Positions 18,717 through 52,140 of a stretch of 64,000 bases of DNA are shown here, in pieces. Both the position numbers and the translations under genes were made by a program. The first letter of the stretch is position 1. The number at the start of each line of letters is the position of its first letter. Below the pieces are notes generated by a model that saw only the letters and a list, made by a program, of their open reading frames with translations, was not told where the DNA came from and searched no databases. The stretch comes from an uncultured beta proteobacterium (GTDB lineage: Bacteria; Pseudomonadota; Gammaproteobacteria; Burkholderiales; SG8-39). The stretch spans positions 14,196 to 78,195 of the forward strand of contig CAWHBT010000017.1 in assembly GCA_963827595.1 (NCBI GenBank), given 5' to 3'.

Positions 18717-18822
18717 GGCGGGCGTGCACTATGTCGCACCGTGCCGCAGCGGCGCCGGGGCGCCGGCAGCGCGGTGTTATCATGCTCTCGTCATGTCCGC
18801 CGCGACGCCGAGGGGAATCGCC

Positions 18823-19392
18823 ATGTCGAAACCGCTGCTCGCCGCGCTCGGACTCGTCGTCGGTTGCTTGGTCGCGGCCGTTGCGTCCGCCCAGATGTAC
18901 CGCTGGGTCGACAAGGACGGCAAGGTCCACTACAGCGACACGCCGCCGCCATCCTCGGCGGGCAAGAGCGCGCAGCTGCGCTCGGGCGGCAACGTCACCG
19001 ACACCGGCACGCTGCCGTACGCCCTGCAGCAGGCGGTCAAGAATTTTCCGGTCACGATCTACACCGCCGACAACTGCAAGGAGGCCTGCGCCGACGGCCG
19101 GAAGCTGCTGCAGAGCCGCGGCGTCCCGTTCCGCGAGGTCGCGATCGCCGACGAGAAAAGCCGGGAGGAGCTGAAGAAGGTGTCCGGCGGCGATGAGGTG
19201 CCGGTGATGACCGTCGGCAAGAGCGTCACGAAGGGATTCGGCGCCGACGCGTGGCATCTCGCTCTCGACGCCGCTGGCTATCCGCGCTCGGGCCCGCCGC
19301 TGGCCGCTGAGACGCAGAAAGCGGCCGCGGCCGCGAAGACCCAGCCGGCAGACGGCGACCAGCCGAAGCTCGGCCCCTACGCGCCGCGGTAA
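18823..19392 (+). CDS. DUF4124 / glutaredoxin-like fusion protein (exported)
   Basis: Signal peptide MSKPLLAALGLVVGCLVAAVASAQ, the DUF4124 signature MYRWVDKDGKVHYSDTPP, then a glutaredoxin-like fold (VTIYTADNCKEACADGRKLLQSRGVPFREVAI). The internal ATG at 18823 was chosen. Confidence 0.7.
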   Translation: MSKPLLAALGLVVGCLVAAVASAQMYRWVDKDGKVHYSDTPPPSSAGKSAQLRSGGNVTDTGTLPYALQQAVKNFPVTIYTADNCKEACADGRKLLQSRGVPFREVAIADEKSREELKKVSGGDEVPVMTVGKSVTKGFGADAWHLALDAAGYPRSGPPLAAETQKAAAAAKTQPADGDQPKLGPYAPR

Positions 19393-19800
19393 TCCGCGGC
19401 AAGGCCGTCCAGGTCCGTCTCCCCGACGACCCCTGCGAGGCGCTCTCCGGGAACAGTCCGCGCCCGCGACTCCCGCCGGACCTACCCTACGGGTCCCGCC
19501 CCCAACGCTCAAGCTTCCGGATCGCCTGCCAGCACTCACAAGCCAGCCCGGTGCGCCCTTGATCCAGCGCCCTGTTCATCCGCCGGCGCTCGAGCTTGAT
19601 GAGCCACTCGCGGATTAGGTCGGCGAAGCGCTGTATCACTCGCACGCCTTCACGACCTCGACGCTGGCCTTGGTGAGCCGCCTGCGCCGATCAGGCCCGC
19701 CCCTGCATTCGCCGCGAGCTTCGAGGACCACGGACCCTCCCGCCTTCGAGTGCTCTTCAAGACGAGGTTCAATTGCATGACCACGATAGGTCTAAGCATC

Positions 19801-19879
19801 TAGGCGAAGAGGGACTCGTCAACCCTCAACCCTCGGCACCTAACAGCGCCGATGCTCTGCCAACTTGAGCTATCCGCCT
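19801..19879 (-). tRNA. tRNA-like element with non-canonical loops (possible decayed tRNA-Asn(GUU))
   Basis: The reverse complement folds as a cloverleaf: acceptor AGGCGGA/TTCGCCT, D-arm GCTC-AAGTTGGCA-GAGC, anticodon stem TCGGC/GCCGA, T-stem GAGGG/CCCTC. However, the anticodon loop is 8-10 nt (contains CTGTTA) and the T-loop is 9 nt (TTGACGAGT). No encoded CCA. Confidence 0.4.
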
Positions 19880-20322
19880 AAGGCAAACCCTAATGCGTCT
19901 CCCTCGGCAAGAAGGCAAAACATCGTTACAAGAGTGAGCGACGTCACGTCGCTTGGGCATTCACCCGCGAGGCGCCGTCGACATAGCCGAATCAGCTCAT
20001 CGTATTCCCGTGGTGAGCCCAGTACTGGAAATTCACCATCTTTGACTGTCGGCGCACGCAAGAGGGGCTAGGCTTTTCTTGCCGGCGCGCGAGCTCTCCC
20101 CGACAGATGGGCGCGCCGTGGATAGGAGCGACCCGCGGCGATGATCTCGAAAACAGCATCGGTTTACGACGACGCTATGCGCGCTATTTGGCAGGACGTG
20201 TGCATGGCAGCGCTACTTGCCGTCGTCGCGTGTGTCCTCGCGATCTTTGCTGCCTGAACGTGCTTTGCGAGCAAAGCCGGATGCGGCGCTCGAACTGAGG
20301 AACGAGCTCCGTGGAGGGAGAA

Positions 20323-20568
20323 ATGTCAACGGCTGAGGATAGGCGGCGTTGGATCGTGCGGCGGGTGTGGGTCGTCGATCCCGACGGGACGAAGCGGGGC
20401 GGGACGCTATGGTGGCTCGACCGCGATAGCGCGCAGATTCGGGTGGACAATCTCTCGGGTGTAACCGTGCTGCCAGTCGCGGCGCGCGGCAAGCGCTGGG
20501 ACTTCGTCGATCGGTGGGATTTCGTCGATAGCCAAGGCAAGGCGCCCGTTGCTCGCTCTTTGGATTAG
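20323..20568 (+). CDS. hypothetical protein (81 aa) with tandem RWDFVD repeat
   Basis: ATG preceded by GGAGGGAGAA. Moderate GC3 bias. No family recognised. Confidence 0.4.
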   Translation: MSTAEDRRRWIVRRVWVVDPDGTKRGGTLWWLDRDSAQIRVDNLSGVTVLPVAARGKRWDFVDRWDFVDSQGKAPVARSLD

Positions 20569-20861
20569 AGGCTGACCGACCGGTGCTGCGCGGCACTTTC
20601 AGCGGCTGGCAACCGCTCTCGAACTTGACCCGAACCTCGCCGAAATAGCCTGACGTCATCAAGGGGACGTGCAGAACGGCCGCCACGTCGGCGAAACTCT
20701 CCTTGCGCCATCGCCCGTCTTGGGGGCGAGCGAAGTCCCCCGGAGACGAGGCGGTAACTTGTCACTACCCCTCCGGCAACAATGCCCCCCGCGCGACTTC
20801 GGCCAGGCCTATCCTACGGACAGAGTTGGATAGGCCAGTGGTACACAACGAGGAAGTGACT

Positions 20862-21176
20862 ATGGTGAAGACCTTGCCGAAGGGGCACGTATCGTGCCTG
20901 TCGAGTGCTTTTCGGTATACGCCCGCGGTGCACACGAATGTCGCGAGCACTTTCGCGCGGATCAGTCGAGAGCTCGGGGCACAGGAGGTGGCCGTTTCCG
21001 CTTCCGGGAGGCGAATTGAAGCCTTACCTGCTCTTGTACATCATCCCTTCCCTCGATTCACGCTGTCGGGGCGCCCCAGTCTCGATGCGTCAGTCATCCG
21101 CCAGCCCCGGCCGTGCACACTGGGCGACGGCAACAATGGTCAGTTTCGGGTCAAGAGGCTGAACACGGCGCGGTGA
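20862..21176 (+). CDS. hypothetical protein (104 aa)
   Basis: ATG preceded by GAGGAAG. GC3 bias is good in the first half only (MVKTLPKGHVSCLSSAFRYTPAVHTNVASTFARISREL), so the real product may be shorter. Confidence 0.35.
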   Translation: MVKTLPKGHVSCLSSAFRYTPAVHTNVASTFARISRELGAQEVAVSASGRRIEALPALVHHPFPRFTLSGRPSLDASVIRQPRPCTLGDGNNGQFRVKRLNTAR

Positions 21177-21275
21177 AGGGGTCACAAGCCCTGGAGCAAT
21201 GGTGCCCAGTCTATTCTGCCCTCTCCGGCGGAGGCGGCGTCAAGCCTGGACGGAGTGTATCCAAGGAGCTCGGCT

Positions 21276-21689
21276 ATGCGCTTGCTCGTAACCTTGAGCG
21301 GTGACGTGGATAGATACCTGGTTAGAGGTGGCATCTGGGAGCTCGGTGGCTACTCCTATCGGGCTTACGTCCACCTCGTCCCGTCGGCACCCCGCCTCGA
21401 CCTCTCCGAGGCAGTCGTACTCGTTTCACTTAGTGGCCCGAGCTTGCAAGGAGTACTCGATGCGGCCACCGCGCGCGTAATGACTGCAATCGGGAAACCG
21501 GTGCAGAACCTCCAGGTGCGCGCCGTGCCGGACAACTCCGAAGCATCGAGCGGAAGAGGGACCGTCCCTCATCCTCTTGGTGCCGCGCAGCCCGCGGGCT
21601 CGCGGCCTTCTGTCTCGTTCCGGTTACCGTCGCGTCTCAGCGGTTCTTCGCAGGAACGGAACGGTCGCCCCGACCGGCTCGATCCGTAG
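21276..21689 (+). CDS. hypothetical protein (137 aa)
   Basis: ATG preceded by AAGGAG. Coding bias is moderate. The C-terminal third is low-complexity Ser/Pro/Arg-rich. Confidence 0.35.
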   Translation: MRLLVTLSGDVDRYLVRGGIWELGGYSYRAYVHLVPSAPRLDLSEAVVLVSLSGPSLQGVLDAATARVMTAIGKPVQNLQVRAVPDNSEASSGRGTVPHPLGAAQPAGSRPSVSFRLPSRLSGSSQERNGRPDRLDP

Positions 21690-21702
21690 AGCGCGACGAC
21701 GG

Positions 21703-22755
21703 TCAGTTGCAAAGGCCGAGGATCCGCTCCTCCGGCGAACACGCGCGCGCGGGCTTTGCTCGAGTTTTGGTCTTCTCGGCGACGCAATTGCGGATCTCTC
21801 TAGTCGTGGTCCTGTAGTAGGTCCAGCCTGGAGCGAGCTCCGGGAGCGTCAAGTCGACCTCGCGCCATTTGGGATGGCCTTCGGCCTGCAGCTTGGAGAA
21901 ATTCTGGCACAGCGATCGCCCGAACCGCGCCAGCGCGGCGACCGTGCCCTGCATGTTGTAGTCGTAGGTGACGAGGTATGCACCCACCGCGATCGTGGTG
22001 AAATCTTCGGTCAACAGCTGCGGATAGCTGCTGGTGCGGACGGTGGAGTGCGTGTAGGTCGTGAGCGGAAGCTTGCTCAAGGGATGATTGGGATCGAACT
22101 TGAGGAACTTGATCAGCTTCTGCGCCTCGGGCCGCATGTTCGCCACCAGCGGCGCCGGCTGTCCAGCAGCCACGACGACCACGTCGATCGATTTGTCGCC
22201 GATCAGCTTGACCAGCGCTTCTTCCATCGCGATGTAGCTTGCGTTTGCCTCGGGAATCGGGCCGCCGAACATCATCCGATAGACCGTATGGGTGATGAGC
22301 GCCGCCCCACTTCCGACCAACCCGCCGTTGATTTTCGCGTTCTTGATGTCGTGGAGGTAGTTCAGCTCGGAGTCGGCTCTGACGATGTAGTGAATCTCGG
22401 TGTTGTAAAGCGGGAGGATGACTCTCAGGGGGCGGATGATTGCACCCGCCTCGGGGTTCCCGGCGCTCGCTCGATCGACGAAGGCTTGATAGACGTCGGC
22501 CTGGACGATCGCGAATTTCACCCCCGGCTCGTAACGAAGCAGGTGGATGTTCGCGGCGGACCCCGCCGTCGGCAGGACCTCCAGATCGATATCCGCAACC
22601 GGCGCCACAAACTTGGCGAGATCGGTTCCGATAGCGAAATAGGTGCCGCGCTCCGACGCGGTCACGATCTTGTAGGCTGCCGAAGCCGCCGGCGCAACCC
22701 CGCTCTGAAAATACAACCCTGCGGCGAGCAGCGCTCCTGTGAGTTTACGCACCAT
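21703..22755 (-). CDS. TAXI-family TRAP-type solute-binding protein (orphan; no permease nearby)
   Basis: Signal peptide, then YKIVTASERGTYFAIGTDLAKF...LPTAGSAANIHLL...YNTEIHYIVRADS...DVVVVAAGQP, which is typical of TAXI/NMT1-like receptors. It ends ...ACSPEERILGLCN. Its start codon lies 1 nt after the stop of the upstream Zn-ribbon gene. Confidence 0.75.
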   Translation of the reverse strand: MVRKLTGALLAAGLYFQSGVAPAASAAYKIVTASERGTYFAIGTDLAKFVAPVADIDLEVLPTAGSAANIHLLRYEPGVKFAIVQADVYQAFVDRASAGNPEAGAIIRPLRVILPLYNTEIHYIVRADSELNYLHDIKNAKINGGLVGSGAALITHTVYRMMFGGPIPEANASYIAMEEALVKLIGDKSIDVVVVAAGQPAPLVANMRPEAQKLIKFLKFDPNHPLSKLPLTTYTHSTVRTSSYPQLLTEDFTTIAVGAYLVTYDYNMQGTVAALARFGRSLCQNFSKLQAEGHPKWREVDLTLPELAPGWTYYRTTTREIRNCVAEKTKTRAKPARACSPEERILGLCN

Positions 22756-22756
22756 A

Positions 22757-23665
22757 CTATTCCCTCCGCTGAATGGATTCTGGCGCGCACAGCCCGAGCG
22801 CCGCTGCCCCGTCAGTGCACGGCCCTACGCGCGGGGGTTGACGCTCGAGGATCCCCGAGCCAGCTCCGGCGGAGCGCGGGCGCGCGACCGCTGCTGGCAG
22901 GGGGGGAGTAGCTTCCGACGGATCCTTTCCCTGAGTCGTGGCTTGTAGCACGCTGGTGGTTCCGTCGGACGAACGAGCAACGGGAGCCGCCGCCGTTGAG
23001 CGTGCATCACCGCCTCCCGAACGGATTGCGGGGTCAGCCGCGACGGGAGGCGTAACTGCGAGGGCCGGAGTCGATGCACTAGGCACTCCGCCATCTGCGC
23101 CCGTGGCGGCGGAGCTGCCGAGATCTTTCACGGTACCCCTCGCCGCAGGGCCTTGTGGGATGTCGAGAACTGGAGGCTCGCGGTATGCGTAGTACCCGGC
23201 CGCGGCAAGGACGGCGAGGACCACCGTACCGACGATCACGGCCAGGCGGCGACGCGGGCCGATCTGCGGTATCCGGATTGCCGGGGATCTGGCGGTTGCC
23301 GACGCGCCCGAATCGGTATTGGCCAGCTGTCGCTGCATCTCCTGCAAAGTCTCGAGATCGCGATTGAGTCCGTCAACACCGAGAACCGGCTGCGCGCTCG
23401 GTTGCGTTCTGCCTTCAGCGGTCCACGCTCCGGACTTCACAGCGTCCCACGCGAGTCCGCCTGGCGGCTTCTCGAGCAACGCGGCAGCGCATTGGTGACA
23501 ACTCGTCGCTAGCGGATCGTTCACCGCTCCACAGCGGGCGCACGGGACCAAGTGCATCGGAGTGCCGCAGGCGTTGCAAAACTTCGAGCCCGCCGGGTTG
23601 ATGTGCTCGCAGAACGGGCACGCGGCAGACCGCATCGACGGGTTCGCAACCAAGCTTCTGGTCAT
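22757..23665 (-). CDS. double zinc-ribbon membrane protein with Ala/Pro/Ser-rich periplasmic tail
   Basis: CPFCEHINPAGSKFCNACG and CARCGAVNDPLATSCHQC form two CxxC...CxxC ribbons. One TM helix (LAVIVGTVVLAVLAAAGYYAY) is followed by a low-complexity tail ending PCTDGAAALGLCAPESIQRRE. The start is uncertain (23701 TTG, 23665 ATG or 23635 ATG). Confidence 0.6.
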   Translation of the reverse strand: MTRSLVANPSMRSAACPFCEHINPAGSKFCNACGTPMHLVPCARCGAVNDPLATSCHQCAAALLEKPPGGLAWDAVKSGAWTAEGRTQPSAQPVLGVDGLNRDLETLQEMQRQLANTDSGASATARSPAIRIPQIGPRRRLAVIVGTVVLAVLAAAGYYAYREPPVLDIPQGPAARGTVKDLGSSAATGADGGVPSASTPALAVTPPVAADPAIRSGGGDARSTAAAPVARSSDGTTSVLQATTQGKDPSEATPPLPAAVARPRSAGAGSGILERQPPRVGPCTDGAAALGLCAPESIQRRE

Positions 23666-24038
23666 TAGCCTTCGGAAAGCACTGGGACTTCGTCTACCCA
23701 ACGTCCTGACCGGAAGGAAGTCAGACTGTAACTCGACGACGTCGCGAGAAGGTCAAACCCTGTCACAGGCGCGCACGAGGTCACGCTATCCTGACACACC
23801 TCCTCGGCGAGGCGCTATGTCATTCAGCCGTGGCGCACCTGCCGCACCTACCGTGCGCCCGCTTCCGATTGCGGCGAACCCCAGACGTAGCGTCCGGATC
23901 GGTAGGATTCAGGCCGGGCCGCGGGCCGCCGTCTAGGCAGCGTGCGCGGGGGTGACTCCTCGCGTTCGCGTCCATGGCTGTGTCCATAGTTGCCATTCCA
24001 AGTTGGAACTACAGCTTTTACAATAGCTTACTGCACAT

Positions 24039-24809
24039 ATGAAGTTCGCGACGTGGAACGTCAACTCGCTGAATGTCCGCCTCCCCCATCTGCTCGACTG
24101 GCTCGAACGCGAGCGACCCGACGTCGTCTGCCTCCAGGAAACCAAGGTCGAGGATCCGAAGTTCCCGGCGGCCGCGCTCGAGGCCGCCGGCTACGGTTCC
24201 GCGTTCGCCGGCCAGAAGGCCTACAACGGGGTGGCGATCCTCGCGCGCGCGCCGCTCACCGACGTGCGGCTCGGGATCCCGAGTCTCGAGGACGACCAGC
24301 GACGGGTCGTGTCCGCGCTCGCCGACGGCATCCGCGTGGTCTGTGCGTACGTACCGAACGGTCAGGCGGTCGGCACGGAGAAGTACGAGTACAAGCTCAA
24401 GTGGCTGCGCGCGTTCGCCGACTGGCTGCGGGGCGAGCTCGCGGCGCACCCGAACCTCGTCGTCCTCGGCGACTACAACGTCGCCCCCGAGGACCGGGAC
24501 GTGCACGACCCGCGGCTCTGGCAAGGGCAGGTGCTGTGCAGCGAGCCGGAGCGCGCCGCGTTCCGACGGCTCCTCGAGCTCGGGCTGAAGGACGGGTTTC
24601 GGCTCTTCGAGCAGCCGGAGAAGTCGTTCAGCTGGTGGGACTACCGCTTGAACGCATTCAAACGCAACATGGGTCTCAGGATCGACCACATCCTCGTCTC
24701 GCCGACGCTCGCCGGGAAGTGCCGGACATGCACGATCGACCGCGGGCCGCGCGCCCTGGAGCGACCGTCCGACCACGCGCCGGTCATCGCCGAGTTCGAG
24801 GTGAAGTGA
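24039..24809 (+). CDS. xthA: exodeoxyribonuclease III
   Basis: [15 protein letters not shown]...VVCLQETK...GDYNVAP...SDHAPV are EEP-family ExoIII motifs. 256 aa. Confidence 0.92.
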
Positions 24810-24819
24810 GGACGAACAG

Positions 24820-25245
24820 ATGATGTCGCACGCCGCGGGACCTGCGGACGCGATCCGGAAGCTCGGCTTCAAGAAGTGGTACGAGCGCCAGCTCATCGAG
24901 AGCCACGCCTACCTCGTTACCTGCTTCCTGTGCCTCATCCTCGCCGTCACCCTGCTCGAGGGGTTCAGCTTCCGTGCGCCGGGGCTGCAGCCCCTCATCG
25001 GCCTAGCGTTGATTGCCGGTGGCGGGTTCGTCGGGCTCTTCTCCCTGCGGCGGTACGGGGCGATCATGGGCGAGGCGGAGCGCCTCAGCCAGCGCTCGAC
25101 CTGCGCCGGCTGCGGCGCGTATGCGACGTTCGACGTCCTCGAGTCCGGCGGCAGCGACGGGCCGTCGCAGGCCGGCGACGGGACGCCGACCACGTGGCTG
25201 CGCGTGCGCTGCCGCAAGTGCGGCCACGGCTGGACGATGCCGTGA
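24820..25245 (+). CDS. membrane protein with C-terminal zinc-ribbon-like CxxC...CxxC
   Basis: Two hydrophobic helices, then CAGCGAY...VRCRKCGHGW. High GC3. Its stop overlaps the start of the next gene (GTGA at 25242-25245). Confidence 0.5.
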   Translation: MMSHAAGPADAIRKLGFKKWYERQLIESHAYLVTCFLCLILAVTLLEGFSFRAPGLQPLIGLALIAGGGFVGLFSLRRYGAIMGEAERLSQRSTCAGCGAYATFDVLESGGSDGPSQAGDGTPTTWLRVRCRKCGHGWTMP

Positions 25246-48470: not shown

Positions 48471-51400
48471 ATGCGCCGCTTCAACCTCTCCGAGTGGGCC
48501 CTCGGGCACCGCAGCCTGGTGCTCTACGCGATGCTCGCGATCGCGCTCGCCGGCGTGCTCTCGTACACGAAGCTCGGGCAATCGGAAGACCCGCCGTTCA
48601 CGTTCAAGGTGATGGTGATCCGCACTACCTGGGCGGGCGCGACCGCGCGCCAGGTCGAGGAGCAGATCACCGACAAGCTCGAGAAGAAGCTGCAGGAGGC
48701 GCCGAACGTCGACGTGATCCGCAGCTACTCGAAGCCCGGCGAGTCCCAGATCTTCTTCCAGATGAAGGACTCCGCGCCGCCGGCGGCGGTGCCGGAGACC
48801 TGGGACCGGGTCCGCAAGAAGATCGCCGACATCCGCCACACGCTCCCCGCGGGCATCCAGGGGCCGTTCTTCAACGACGAGTTCGGGGACGTCTACGGCA
48901 ACATCTACGCCCTCACCGGCGAGGGCTTCTCCTACGCCGACCTCAAGAAGTACGCCGACCGGATCCGGGCCGAGCTGCTGCGCGTGCCGGAGGTCGCGAA
49001 GGTCGACTTCGTCGGCGAGCAGGACGAGAAGGTCTACATCGAGCTCTCGAACACCCGGCTCGCGACGCTCGGCGTCGACGCTCCAGACGATCGTCAACGC
49101 GCTCGCCACCCAGAACGCCATCGCCCCGGCGGGCACGTTCGAGACGCCGAGCGACCGGATCTACCTCCGCACGACCGGCGACTTCGACTCGGTCGAGGCG
49201 GTCCGCGAGACCACGATCCGCGCCAACGGTCGGCTCTTTCGCCTCGGCGACATCGCCCGCGTGCAGCGCGGCTATGCCGATCCGCCGCAGCCGAAGATGC
49301 GCTACCAGGGCAAGGAGGCGTTCGGGATCGGCGTGTCGATGGTCAAGGGCGGCGACATCATCGAGCTCGGCGCCAATCTCGACCGGGAGATCGCGCGCCT
49401 CGCCCGCGAGCTGCCGGTGGGGCTGGAGCTCGCGCAGGTGACGAGCCAGCCGCAGGCGGTGCAGCGCTCGGTGAACGAGTTCGTCCGCTCGCTCGCCGAA
49501 GCGGTGCTCATCGTGCTCGCGGTGAGCCTCGCCTCGCTCGGCTTGCGGACCGGCTTCGTGGTGGCGCTGTCGATCCCGCTGGTGCTGGCCGCGACCTTCC
49601 TGTTGATGCAGGTGTTCGGGATCGGGCTGCACAAGATCTCGCTCGGCGCGCTGATCCTCGCGCTCGGCCTGCTGGTCGACGACGCGATCATCGCCGTGGA
49701 AATGATGGCGACCAAGATGGAGCAGGGCTGGGACCGGCTGCGCGCGGCGAGCTTCGCCTACACCAGCACCGCCATGCCGATGCTCTCCGGCACGCTCGTG
49801 ACGGTCGCCGGGTTCCTGCCGATCGCGACCGCGGCCTCGACGACCGGGGAGTACACCCGTTCGATCTTCCAGGTCACCACGATCGCCCTGCTCGTCTCGT
49901 GGATCGCGGCGGTGGTGTTCGTGCCGTTCCTCGGCTACAAGCTCCTGCCCGACTTCGCGCAGGCGAACGGCCAGCCCTCGCGACTGCGGCGGCTGCTCGC
50001 GCGCGTGGCGCCGAGGCTCGCACCGGCGGCGCACGCCGTGCCGGTTTCGCATGCCGATCGCGAGCGGGCGGTCTACGAGACGCCCTTCTATCGCGCGTTG
50101 CGGCAGGTCATCCACTGGTGCGTCGTGCGCCGGAAGACGGTGATTCTCGCGACCGCGGCGCTCTTCGCGCTCGCGCTCTTCGCCTTCGGGTCCGTGCAGC
50201 AGCAGTTCTTCCCCGCCTCGAGCCGGCCGGAGCTCCTCGTCGACCTGCGGCTACCGCAAGGCGCCTCGTTCGAGGCGACCGAGGCCCAGGCGAAGCGGTT
50301 CGAGAAGCTGCTCGACCGGGAGACGGGCATCGTGAACTACGTGAGCTACGTCGGCTCGGGCAGCCCGCGCTTCTACCTGCCGCTCGACCAGCAGCTCCCG
50401 AACGCGAACTTCGCGCAGTTCGTGATCCTCACCCAGGGGATCGCGGACCGCGAGCGCCTCCGCGCGCGGCTGATCAAGCTGTTCGACGAGGACTTCCAGG
50501 GGCTGCGCGCCAACATCACCCGCCTGGAGAACGGCCCGCCGGTCGGCTTCCCGGTGCAGTTCCGCGTGTCGGGCGAGGACGTCCCGACGGTGCGGCGTCA
50601 CGCCGACCGCGTGGCCGAGGTCATGCGCGAGAACCCGAACGTGTCGAACGTGCAGTTCGACTGGGACGAGAAGTCGAAGACGATCAAGGTCGAGATCGAC
50701 CAGGAAAAGGTGCGGCTCCTCGGGCTCTCGTCGCAGGAGCTCTCGACGTTCCTCAACACGTCGCTCAACGGGCTGACGGTCACCTACTACCGCGAGCGCG
50801 ACAAGCTCATCGACGTCGTCATGCGCGGCTCGGTCGACGAGCGCGCGAAGCTCTCGTACCTCCAGGATCTCGCCGTGCCGACCCGCTCGGGCAAGTCGGT
50901 GCCGCTGTCGCAGATCGCGAACATCACGTACGAGTTCGAGGACGGGGTGATCTGGCGCCGCAACCGGCTACCGACGATCACCGTGCGCGCCAACGTCTAC
51001 GGCGACATCCAGGCGCCGGTGGTGACCGCCCAGATCGCGCCGAAGCTCGACCCGGTCCGGGTCGCGCTCCCGCCCGGCTACCGCCTCGAGACCGGCGGCG
51101 CGGTCGAGGACGCCGCCAAGGGCCAGAAGTCGGTCGCGGCCGGGGTGCCGCTCTTCCTCGTGGTCGTGCTGACGGTCCTGATGGTGCAGCTGCAGAGCTT
51201 CTCCCGGGTGGCGATGGTCATCCTCACCGCCCCCCTCGGCCTCATCGGCGTGACAGGGTTCATGCTCGCGTTCAACCAGCCGTTCGGTTTCGTCGCGATG
51301 TTGGGCACCATTGCGCTCTCCGGAATGATCATGCGGAACTCCGTCATCCTCGTGGACCAGATCGACCAGGACATCCGCGCCGGCCACGCGCCGGGCGCGG

Positions 51401-51694
51401 CGGTCGTCGAGGCCACCGTGCGGCGGTTCCGGCCGATTACCCTGACCGCCGCCGCCGCGGTACTCGCGATGATTCCGCTCACGCGGAGCGCGTTCTTCGG
51501 CCCGATGGCGGTGGCCATCATGGGCGGTCTCGTCGTGGCCACCGGGCTGACCGTGCTCTTCCTGCCGGCGCTCTACGCGGCGTGGTTCCGCGTGAAACCG
51601 GTCGTGCGCGACCCCGGCGCCGGCGAAGCGCGCCGAAGAGCCGCACGCGCGGGCGCCGGAGGCGGCGCCGCAAATGCTCGAAGGCACCCTGTAA
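48471..51694 (+). pseudogene. efflux RND permease (AcrB/HAE1-like), with a 1-nt insertion at about 49080 and an ambiguous 3' end
   Basis: MRRFNLSEWALGHRSLVLYAML...LATLGVD continues in the +1 frame as LQTIVNALATQNAIAPAGTFE... and runs through 12-TM RND sequence to ...LYAAWFRVKP. As sequenced, that frame runs on into the SRPBCC ORF. A TAA in the next frame at 51692-51694 is the likely true stop. Confidence 0.8.
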
Positions 51695-51696
51695 CC

Positions 51697-52140
51697 ATGT
51701 TGCTAGCCGAACTCTTCACGCTGACCGAGATCGAGGCGCCCGCGGAGCGCGTCTGGAATATCCTCACCGACTTCGCGCGTTACCCGGAGTGGAACCCTTT
51801 CATCCGCCGCATCGAAGGCGAGCCGCTCAGGCGCGCAGCGCTCGACGTCCTGATCCACCCGGACGGTGCGCGGCCCCGCCGGTTCCGGCCGCACATCGTC
51901 ACCTTCCGGCCCCCGAAGGAGCTCCGCTGGCGCGCCCGGGCGCGGCTGCCGGGGCTGTTCCAGGGCGAGCACCGGTTCGTGGTCGAGCAGCTCGGGCCCA
52001 GCCGCTCACGCCTCATCCACGAGCAGCGCGTCAGGGGCCTGGTCGTGCCGTTCCTGCGCGCACGGCTCGAGGAGCCCGTGCGGCGCGGGTTCGACGCGAT
52101 GAATCTCGCGCTGAAGCAGCTCGCCGAGCGCTACGCCTGA
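51697..52140 (+). CDS. SRPBCC-superfamily (polyketide cyclase/START-like) protein
   Basis: MLLAELFTLTEIEAPAERVWNILTDFARYPEWNPFI... is the typical start of SRPBCC proteins. The ATG sits 2 nt after an out-of-frame TAA. Confidence 0.6.
   Translation: MLLAELFTLTEIEAPAERVWNILTDFARYPEWNPFIRRIEGEPLRRAALDVLIHPDGARPRRFRPHIVTFRPPKELRWRARARLPGLFQGEHRFVVEQLGPSRSRLIHEQRVRGLVVPFLRARLEEPVRRGFDAMNLALKQLAERYA

Follow-up and report, generated by a model that had tools for sequence, protein, structure and literature searches.

Within a 64,000-nucleotide (nt) stretch of DNA from an uncultured beta proteobacterium (contig CAWHBT010000017.1; hereinafter the window), two adjacent genes encode a predicted single-pass membrane protein with a double zinc ribbon, which we denote the anchor, and a secreted protein of the TAXI fold, which we denote the binding protein. 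Close to their C-termini, the two proteins carry matching loops of the form C-x9-C. We believe there is about an even chance that this gene pair encodes a two-part, single-pass membrane sensor rather than a component of a transporter, with the loops docking the binding protein onto the anchor.

Organization of the gene pair and the matching loops

The anchor gene (22757-23665, reverse strand), identified by its open reading frame (ORF), a match to the DZR profile and homologs of the same plan, encodes a protein of 302 amino acids (aa). The binding-protein gene (21703-22755, reverse strand) encodes a secreted, divergent TAXI-fold protein of 350 aa, as indicated by the ORF, Pfam and NCBIfam matches, an AlphaFold2 model and Foldseek comparisons. 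The layout described in the initial annotation of this DNA, namely, a gene for a protein with a double zinc ribbon, a transmembrane (TM) helix and a tail, followed after a 1-nt gap by a TAXI-type gene, is borne out by the ORFs and the profile matches. The start codon of the anchor gene is the ATG at 23663-23665, in agreement with the MTRS... start of the homologs P0122 and P0125-P0128; the database gene call for the same contig (P0121) starts at the next ATG, yielding a 292-aa protein. The gap between the stop codon of the anchor gene (TAG, 22757-22759) and the start codon of the binding-protein gene (ATG, 22753-22755) is exactly 1 nt, and the Shine-Dalgarno sequence of the latter gene, GGAGG (22763-22767, reverse strand), lies within the last codons of the former, where CGG AGG encodes the Arg-Arg of the terminal ...QRRE.

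A genome scan that included one genome per species yielded 80 loci, all at least about 69% identical, which together with four further contigs make up 84 loci and, with the window added, 85 sequences. Among these 85, there are 80 in which a loop-bearing ORF ends close to the binding-protein start; the gap from stop codon to ATG is between -4 and +5 nt in 58 of these 80 and exactly +1 nt in 32, and a Shine-Dalgarno-like sequence (GGAG, GAGG or AGGA, detected as a simple pattern) is located just 5' of the binding-protein start in 54. Where the two genes are tightly coupled, the Shine-Dalgarno sequence resides inside the last codons of the anchor gene whatever the terminal residues, which vary by lineage (QRRE, PRRQ, PRSP, KGR), whereas the DNA beneath them retains GGAGG, so that conservation 3' of the anchor loop is, at least in part, attributable to nucleotide constraint. 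Judging from these sequences, such tight spacing with an embedded Shine-Dalgarno sequence is the signature of a predicted translational coupling. We also considered the possibility that the QRRE end of the anchor offers a C-terminal Glu to the binding pocket, and rejected it because these residues vary (PRSP, PRRP, KGR) and GGAGG is retained. Both genes are represented in soil metatranscriptome contigs from close relatives, and the junction is crossed by two of these contigs, at positions corresponding to 22377-22804 and 22665-22932.

The double zinc ribbon of the anchor (residues 16-59; 23489-23620, reverse strand) consists of four CxxC pairs (C16 and C19, C30 and C33, C42 and C45, C56 and C59) and is matched by the Pfam profile PF12773 DZR with an E-value of 1.1e-9 and 38.8 bits against a cut-off of 27.3. 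All eight zinc-ribbon cysteines are invariant across 25 anchor homologs. Pfam and NCBIfam searches with the anchor matched zinc-ribbon families alone, with neither a winged helix-turn-helix nor a ZAS anti-sigma domain, and the solved relatives of the ribbon are generic ribbons only, such as L40e. The single hydrophobic segment of the protein, LAVIVGTVVLAVLAAAGYY (residues 141-159; mean Kyte-Doolittle hydropathy 2.2), directly follows RRR and marks the TM helix (about residues 141-161; 23183-23245, reverse strand), which is placed at the hydropathy maximum of 2.2 and corresponds to a hydrophobic block that is conserved in the alignment. Given that RRR precedes the TM helix, the N-terminus is predicted to be inside and the C-terminus outside, which would make the ribbon cytoplasmic and the tail periplasmic. 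The tail comprises 140 residues (A 19%, P 14%, G 12%, S 9%), and the periplasmic Ala/Pro/Gly/Ser-rich tether within it (22820-23182, reverse strand), delineated by its composition, has no conserved columns among the homologs, in which the tether is variable in both length and sequence, with low-complexity tails of 120-250 residues that are sometimes short. Conservation in the anchor is thus confined to the zinc ribbon, the TM helix and the loops, and the stretches between them vary in length and sequence; the anchor ends with ...PCTDGAAALGLCAPESIQRRE.

The binding protein is matched by PF16868 NMT1_3 (E-value 1.2e-26, 94.4 bits against a cut-off of 27), and its score with the TAXI profile TIGR02122, 80.0 bits, is just below the cut-off of 84.35. 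A Sec signal peptide can be read from the sequence at about residues 1-26 (MVRK, a hydrophobic core and AASA; 22678-22755, reverse strand); its position is conserved in the family, and the predicted local distance difference test score (pLDDT) is below 50 over residues 1-23. The AlphaFold2 model of the protein has a mean pLDDT of 83.9 and a predicted template modeling score of 0.77, and the top seven Foldseek matches are all TAXI structures, with TM scores of 0.74-0.78, E-values from 4.5e-20 to 2e-18 and about 21% identity. The best matches in the PDB are the glutamate-binding proteins VcGluP and TtGluBP and two TAXI proteins denoted 'immunogenic protein'. According to the model, then, the binding protein is, by fold, a two-lobed TAXI protein. 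For neither protein of the pair is there a specific curated family or a close relative of solved structure. In VcGluP, the ligand is contacted by Y45, S75, Q93 and E125, the last of which binds the amino group of the ligand (PMC11574862); in a profile alignment, Y45, S75 and Q93 correspond to the invariant Y39, S66 and Q85 of the binding protein. The sequences suggest that the binding pocket is probably functional, with a ligand that is not predictable beyond a class that is probably carboxylate-bearing. Conservation in the binding-protein family is unusually high: across 58 sequences, column identity averages 77%, and the four cysteines C283, C324, C339 and C349 are invariant. Because C283 and C324 are retained also in relatives without the loop, they are likely to staple the last helix. 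The protein ends with ...ACSPEERILGLCN.

The loop of the anchor, CTDGAAALGLC (C283-C293; 22787-22819, reverse strand), is located in the predicted periplasmic tail, and that of the binding protein, CSPEERILGLC (C339-C349; 21709-21741, reverse strand), sits on a variable Lys/Pro/Ala linker after C324. The initial annotation had singled out these two cysteine pairs as sharing the C-x9-C spacing and the final LGLC; both pairs are as described and the coordinates of the 11-residue elements are exact, whereas the motif strings, given as 12 residues, include one residue beyond those coordinates. The loop is followed by a single residue in the binding protein and by nine polar residues in the anchor.

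Alignments of orthologs show that, within their respective families, both loops are nearly invariant, in keeping with the significance that had been attached to them. We compiled position profiles for 102 anchor loops and 80 binding-protein loops. The profile of the anchor family is C-T-[ED]-A-V-A-A-L-G-L-C, with 100% conservation of the two cysteines and the glycine and 98-99% conservation of the two leucines, and nearly all anchor homologs end with C-T-[ED]-x-x-A-A-L-G-L-C. All of the 120 closest homologs of the binding protein end with C-[ST]-x-E-E-x-I-L-G-[LFI]-C, including one with LGIC, and the loop is retained down to about 35% identity. The 1.26 million ORF residues surrounding the 84 related loci contain only three further occurrences of C-x6-LG[LFIM]C, of which one is the binding protein itself (CSAEERLLGLC, L084) and the other two appear to belong to mechanical ORFs that are not coding. 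The shared loop motif is not a chance similarity. Profile-profile comparison with hhalign brings the loops of the two families into the same register (P = 3.5e-4 over 18 columns); the motif of distant binding proteins is C-T-x-[QE]-[ED]-R-x-L-G-L-C, so that the resemblance to the anchor loops extends beyond LGLC, and MAFFT, on its own, placed fragments of the anchor tail onto the loop of the binding protein. In both loops, positions 7, 8 and 10 are hydrophobic, and AlphaFold2 predicts a five-residue helix inside the loop of the binding protein (pLDDT about 77). A search of proteins with a 44-aa motif profile retrieved six short fragments and missed known family members, and so is no test of other architectures.

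The window anchor has one loop. Two loops, about 50 residues apart, are present in 69 of the 119 anchors from metagenome contigs and in 22 of the 81 anchors from genome loci, and three of the 119 have three loops. Tandem copies of CTEAxAALGLC are found in many anchors among L092-L211, for example, in L092 (887-919), L097 (163-348) and L112 (1879-2055).

Among the possible roles of the shared motif, the initial annotation had listed sorting, which now appears unlikely: no TM helix or basic tail follows the motif, and the anchor loop is found almost only 5' of the binding-protein gene. A C-terminal sorting signal of the PEP-CTERM, GlyGly-CTERM or LPXTG type was rejected on the former ground, and a lipobox was rejected as well because position -1 is Leu and the motif is C-terminal.

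Conservation of the pair and fusions of the binding domain

The hosts of the scan loci are metagenome-assembled genomes (MAGs) of Burkholderiales, isolates of Roseateles and Paucibacter, Usitatibacteraceae and a Propionivibrio. The two genes are adjacent almost everywhere. In 80 of the 85 sequences, a loop-bearing ORF ends between -50 and +174 nt from the start of the binding-protein gene; among the exceptions, L054 is at a contig edge, L080 is divergent yet adjacent, L061 has a zinc-ribbon ORF without a recognizable loop, the binding-protein ORF of L084 could not be evaluated, and L050 is a true absence. Even L091, with only 36% identity, retains the pair, in which the anchor loop is CTESVAALGLC and the binding-protein loop CPHEDRGLGLC. 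A blind scan of metagenome contigs with a DNA pattern for the anchor loop detected 119 loci, of which 103 contain the binding-protein gene directly downstream; of the remainder, 13 have no room for it and three lack it, so that the gene is present in 103 of the 106 testable contigs.

Clustering of the flanking genes in the 84 loci showed that only the two genes of the pair recur as neighbors, the next most common family being TctC, in 16 loci, and that there is no recurrent polytopic protein among the neighbors. A TRAP (tripartite ATP-independent periplasmic) permease is thus not normally adjacent to the pair, as opposed to having been lost from this genome in particular, and the statement in the initial annotation that the window encodes no such permease holds over its 64 kb: the polytopic ORFs are limited to an ABC-2 permease, a ceramidase-like protein and an AcrB fragment, and a tblastn search of the window with two fused DctQM permeases from related loci found nothing. 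The two DctM genes present among the loci (in L050 and L009) belong to other systems. L050 (1101-5816), from a Propionivibrio MAG, lacks a zinc-ribbon gene upstream of the gene for the loop-bearing binding protein, downstream of which lie genes for a canonical TAXI protein and a fused DctQM permease. In L088 (4844-7062) and L089 (1980-4198), the genes for two tandem loop-bearing paralogs (CVFQDEVLGLC and CALPDKVMGLC) adjoin cobalamin-synthesis genes, and the vicinity contains no zinc-ribbon gene.

When 1.84 billion cluster representatives were searched exhaustively, 2388 relatives of the binding domain emerged at E-values up to 1e-3. Among the 18 long representatives, the domain is combined with an nSTAND1 P-loop NTPase in 13 (two of these detected weakly) and with PP2C, TIR and a zinc ribbon in one each; the remaining two have no recognized N-terminal domain. 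Most of the long representatives contain a single hydrophobic segment just ahead of the binding domain. The zinc-ribbon fusion, P0217, is a 563-aa protein found in four independent assemblies, and the cluster that contains the PP2C fusion has 13 members; given this recurrence, these two fusions are not assembly artifacts. To judge from these architectures, the binding domain of the relatives is the predicted outward-facing part of single-pass signaling proteins, and the zinc-ribbon fusion is a putative Rosetta-stone link between the two genes in the window. The proposal, made in the initial annotation, that the pair is involved in sensing and not in transport receives indirect support from these relatives, in which one TM helix joins the binding domain to PP2C, TIR, nSTAND1 or a zinc ribbon.

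The presence of the loop tracks architecture. The C-x9-C loop is present in 29 free binding proteins and missing in 15, whereas among the TM-fused forms it is present in one and missing in 14, a distribution that fits the possibility that the loop replaces covalent tethering.

Two of the relatives deserve separate mention. Adding to the indirect support for sensing, the PP2C-TM-binding-domain protein P0326 (L212, 233-4810) is encoded in an apparent operon, with a Ser/Thr kinase gene upstream and genes for an FHA protein, an M48 peptidase and an FHA-ABC transporter downstream. P0286, a protein of 2478 aa, contains three NMT1_3 binding domains along with a trypsin-like protease, TPR repeats and DsbA/thioredoxin domains, thus tying the clade of binding domains to disulfide chemistry within a single chain.

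A candidate two-part sensor and the competing explanations

Under the proposed mechanism, the binding protein would be exported by the Sec pathway, fold as a TAXI-type Venus-flytrap and bind a small periplasmic ligand, probably one bearing a carboxylate. The anchor would combine a cytoplasmic double zinc ribbon, one membrane crossing and a long flexible tether ending in one to three C-x6-LGLC loops, and the loop of the binding protein would sit on its own short, flexible C-terminal linker. The matched loops would then serve as the dock between binding protein and tether, whether by non-covalent contacts or by disulfides between the chains. Both the tether and the linker on the cytoplasmic side are disordered and variable, which makes a rigid conformational relay unlikely; the state of the ligand might rather be passed on through the clustering, occupancy or stability of the anchor. 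The zinc ribbon would act as a cytoplasmic adaptor that recruits or releases a cytoplasmic partner. The membrane topology, the disulfide state of the loops, their docking onto one another, the role of the zinc ribbon as the output and the class of ligand are inferred.

Structurally, each loop may be an intramolecular, disulfide-stapled knob on its own protein, or the two loops may pair in trans via two interchain disulfides. In mitochondrial twin-CX9C (CHCH) proteins, two C-x9-C segments are held together by two disulfides. By analogy, and only tentatively, the C-x9-C elements of the anchor and the binding protein might pair in trans, in a manner resembling a CX9C hairpin, giving rise to a covalent and possibly redox-reversible receptor assembly. 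Should this be the case, the number of loops, from one to three, would determine the valency of the receptor, and the cytoplasmic zinc ribbon would represent a new kind of output module.

Several observations weigh against the sensor reading; those on cytoplasmic partner genes, on the modeled complex and on binding proteins without an adjacent anchor gene weaken any model of docking by the loops. The double zinc ribbon has no known signaling activity, and no gene for a cytoplasmic partner is conserved nearby; genes for FHA and kinase domains, the candidates that we considered for this part, were rejected, each being present in only one of the 84 loci. An AlphaFold2 model of a fused chain consisting of the mature binding protein and the natural tail of the anchor had a mean pLDDT of only 42.7 and is thus uninformative; in the underlying alignment, MAFFT matched the anchor fragments with the loop that the binding protein itself carries, which left the tail without alignment depth. 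The metatranscriptome contigs may contain DNA carry-over. Loop-bearing binding proteins without an adjacent anchor gene are found in L050, L085 and L088/L089, so that the loop has a role independent of a neighboring anchor gene. In the pocket, E125 of VcGluP aligns with T119, with E120 one position off. Finally, the contrast between free and fused forms comes largely from a few clades and, hence, from few independent events.

Of the alternatives, the one that survives best, although we consider it rather unlikely, is that the anchor only retains the binding protein at the inner membrane, for the benefit of a transporter encoded elsewhere, with the zinc ribbon playing no part in signaling. Other binding proteins are likewise kept in place by a lipid anchor or a fused TM helix; there are precedents for orphan TRAP binding proteins, and one TAXI protein works, tethered or fused, with the non-TRAP carrier GltS (PMC12344293). 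The retention of three of the four main VcGluP ligand contacts is also compatible with such a role, and L050 encodes a canonical TAXI protein and a DctQM permease just downstream of the loop-bearing binding protein. However, that permease has its own canonical TAXI partner, and in about 200 loci no transporter is a conserved neighbor; moreover, the eight invariant cysteines of the zinc ribbon argue for a functional cytoplasmic domain, and the relatives are fused to PP2C, TIR and nSTAND1, not to carriers.

A stability switch similar to ToxR/ToxS or RseA/RseB we regard as unlikely. Here, the binding protein would cap the periplasmic end of the anchor and shield it from periplasmic proteases, and the ligand or the redox state would govern cleavage and the release of a zinc-ribbon fragment into the cytoplasm. 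In layout, the two systems agree in that a bitopic protein, which bears a Cys pair in the periplasm, is joined by a periplasmic partner from the same transcript; proteolysis of ToxR is governed by its disulfide state and by ToxS (PMC6242745, PMC7265457), and the tether of the anchor, being disordered, is likely to be accessible to proteases. Yet the conserved neighborhood of the pair includes neither a site-1 or site-2 protease nor a sigma factor or a target gene, and the zinc ribbon belongs to neither the winged helix-turn-helix nor the ZAS anti-sigma class of domains.

Quite improbable, in our view, is an envelope tether that spans the periplasm, in which the Ala/Pro-rich tail would reach the peptidoglycan or the outer membrane, with the binding protein as a cap and a cell-wall-derived ligand, such as a Glu-containing muropeptide. 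The low-complexity tails of 120-250 residues do resemble periplasm-spanning linkers and the closest solved relatives bind glutamate, but the tail varies greatly in length and can be short, envelope genes are absent from the conserved neighborhood, and the amino-group-binding residue of VcGluP does not align with a Glu. A minimal sensor for conflict or defense, with the binding domain detecting an invader- or kin-derived periplasmic molecule, is highly improbable despite the TIR and nSTAND1 fusions within the same clade of binding domains, given that there is no effector domain, that neither protein in the window matches PADLOC at E-values up to 0.01 (which also led us to reject a known anti-phage defense system), that the binding protein is very conserved (mean column identity 77%), unlike fast-evolving immune sensors, and that in most genomes its G+C content at third codon positions (GC3) equals that of the flanking genes, as expected of a native gene.

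If the two-part sensor reading is correct, the pair would represent a new design of bacterial receptor, in which a soluble binding protein is plugged onto a minimal zinc-ribbon anchor by matching disulfide loops. TAXI proteins are automatically filed as transporter subunits, but this clade appears to be a sensor module, so that current annotations mislead. The clade is not small: it includes hundreds of clusters at 90% identity in soil and freshwater Betaproteobacteria, with the nSTAND1, PP2C and TIR fusions beyond. In addition, the pair provides the DZR domain, which is widespread and functionally blank, with a testable setting, and the loop offers a proposed short (11-residue), modular periplasmic docking tag. 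Cultured hosts are at hand, namely, Roseateles asaccharophilus DSM 25082, R. oligotrophus CHU3, R. cavernae and Paucibacter hankyongi.

Genomic surroundings and comparison with known systems

In the window, the pair is divergent from a gene of the exonuclease III family (24039-24809, forward strand; Pfam Exo_endo_phos), and the intergenic region between them (23666-24038, from the ORF map) is the presumed location of the promoter. No match to the sigma-70 consensus was found upstream of the pair, and in an Rfam scan of the window nothing attained the gathering score. Directly after the exonuclease III-family gene, at 24820-25245 (forward strand), a second small zinc-ribbon membrane protein is encoded near the pair; it consists of 141 aa, with two hydrophobic segments, and ends in a zinc-ribbon-like CxxC...CxxC motif.

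On its other side, the pair adjoins a 2.3-kb stretch of low G+C content (19400-21700; 0.63 compared to about 0.70) that contains no ORF with a Pfam match and starts at a degenerate tRNA-like element (19800-19880, reverse strand), which ARAGORN reports as 'tRNA-???' with a 4-base anticodon and which does not attain an Rfam gathering score. This stretch looks like the remnant of an integrated element. The GC3 values of the two genes of the pair are 0.69 and 0.80, compared to the flanking median of 0.92, and together with the adjacent low-GC stretch, this composition suggests that the pair may lie on an old insertion in this genome. Elsewhere in the window, the gene at 18724-19392 (forward strand) encodes a 222-aa protein with a hydrophobic N-terminal segment, DUF4124 and a glutaredoxin domain. 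In the product of the gene at 49261-52140 (forward strand), the match to the AcrB family begins at position 272 of the profile, and there is a C-terminal SRPBCC (polyketide cyclase-like) domain; this is either a truncated or mis-started pump of the resistance-nodulation-division type or an unusual fusion.

The literature that we searched contains no description of the pair, in agreement with the view, expressed in the initial annotation, that no system of this architecture has been described. The binding protein shares with the TAXI proteins of TRAP transporters (VcGluP, 8S4J/9IBO; TtGluBP, 1US4; the Ehrlichia protein, 4DDD) the fold, PF16868 and the Sec signal peptide. In place of their GG-x-SG-V-Y-Y loop, however, it has AS-E-R-G-T-Y-F, and it adds a C-terminal linker and the C-x9-C loop; it is coupled to a zinc-ribbon membrane protein instead of being linked to a DctQM permease. 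The defining genomic feature of a TRAP subunit is an adjacent permease, and the binding protein in the window fails it.

A partnership outside the TRAP family is not without parallel. In Bordetella pertussis, a TAXI protein is translationally coupled to a non-TRAP membrane protein, GltS, and fused versions in other organisms serve as evidence of the partnership (PMC12344293). That partner, however, is a polytopic Na+/glutamate symporter, whereas the anchor is a single-pass protein without a transport domain. Like the pair described here, regulators of the ToxR/ToxS type (PMC7265457, PMC6242745, PMC13042144) combine a bitopic protein that has a small cytoplasmic domain and a periplasmic Cys pair with a co-transcribed partner, and their disulfide state is important for the partnership. 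The cytoplasmic part of ToxR is a winged-helix DNA-binding domain, whereas that of the anchor is a double zinc ribbon; ToxS-type partners are membrane-anchored and lipocalin-like, whereas the binding protein is a free TAXI-fold protein, and there is no sequence relationship. In the mycobacterial GlnH-GlnX-PknG system, a solute-binding protein acts through a non-transporter membrane protein on cytoplasmic Ser/Thr signaling (PMC6069109). The likeness extends to the PP2C-TM-binding-domain relative in its kinase/FHA operon; GlnX is polytopic, and the zinc-ribbon pair has no linked kinase, phosphatase or FHA gene. The loops show the same C-x9-C spacing as mitochondrial CHCH proteins (PMC12114033, PMC7909247), likewise in an oxidizing compartment, but CHCH proteins have two such segments per chain and the proteins in the window one each, so that any pairing would be in trans; furthermore, the loops described here have an invariant Gly at position 9 and no homology to CHCH proteins, so that the resemblance is a lead only.

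Taken together, these comparisons suggest that the pair would work most like binding-protein-dependent sensors and co-component regulators, as exemplified by ToxRS and GlnH-GlnX-PknG, with TAXI-GltS as the precedent for a non-TRAP partnership, and without shared domains or sequence. The combination of a binding protein with a non-transporter membrane partner is already known; what is new are these particular parts and the device of the matched loops.

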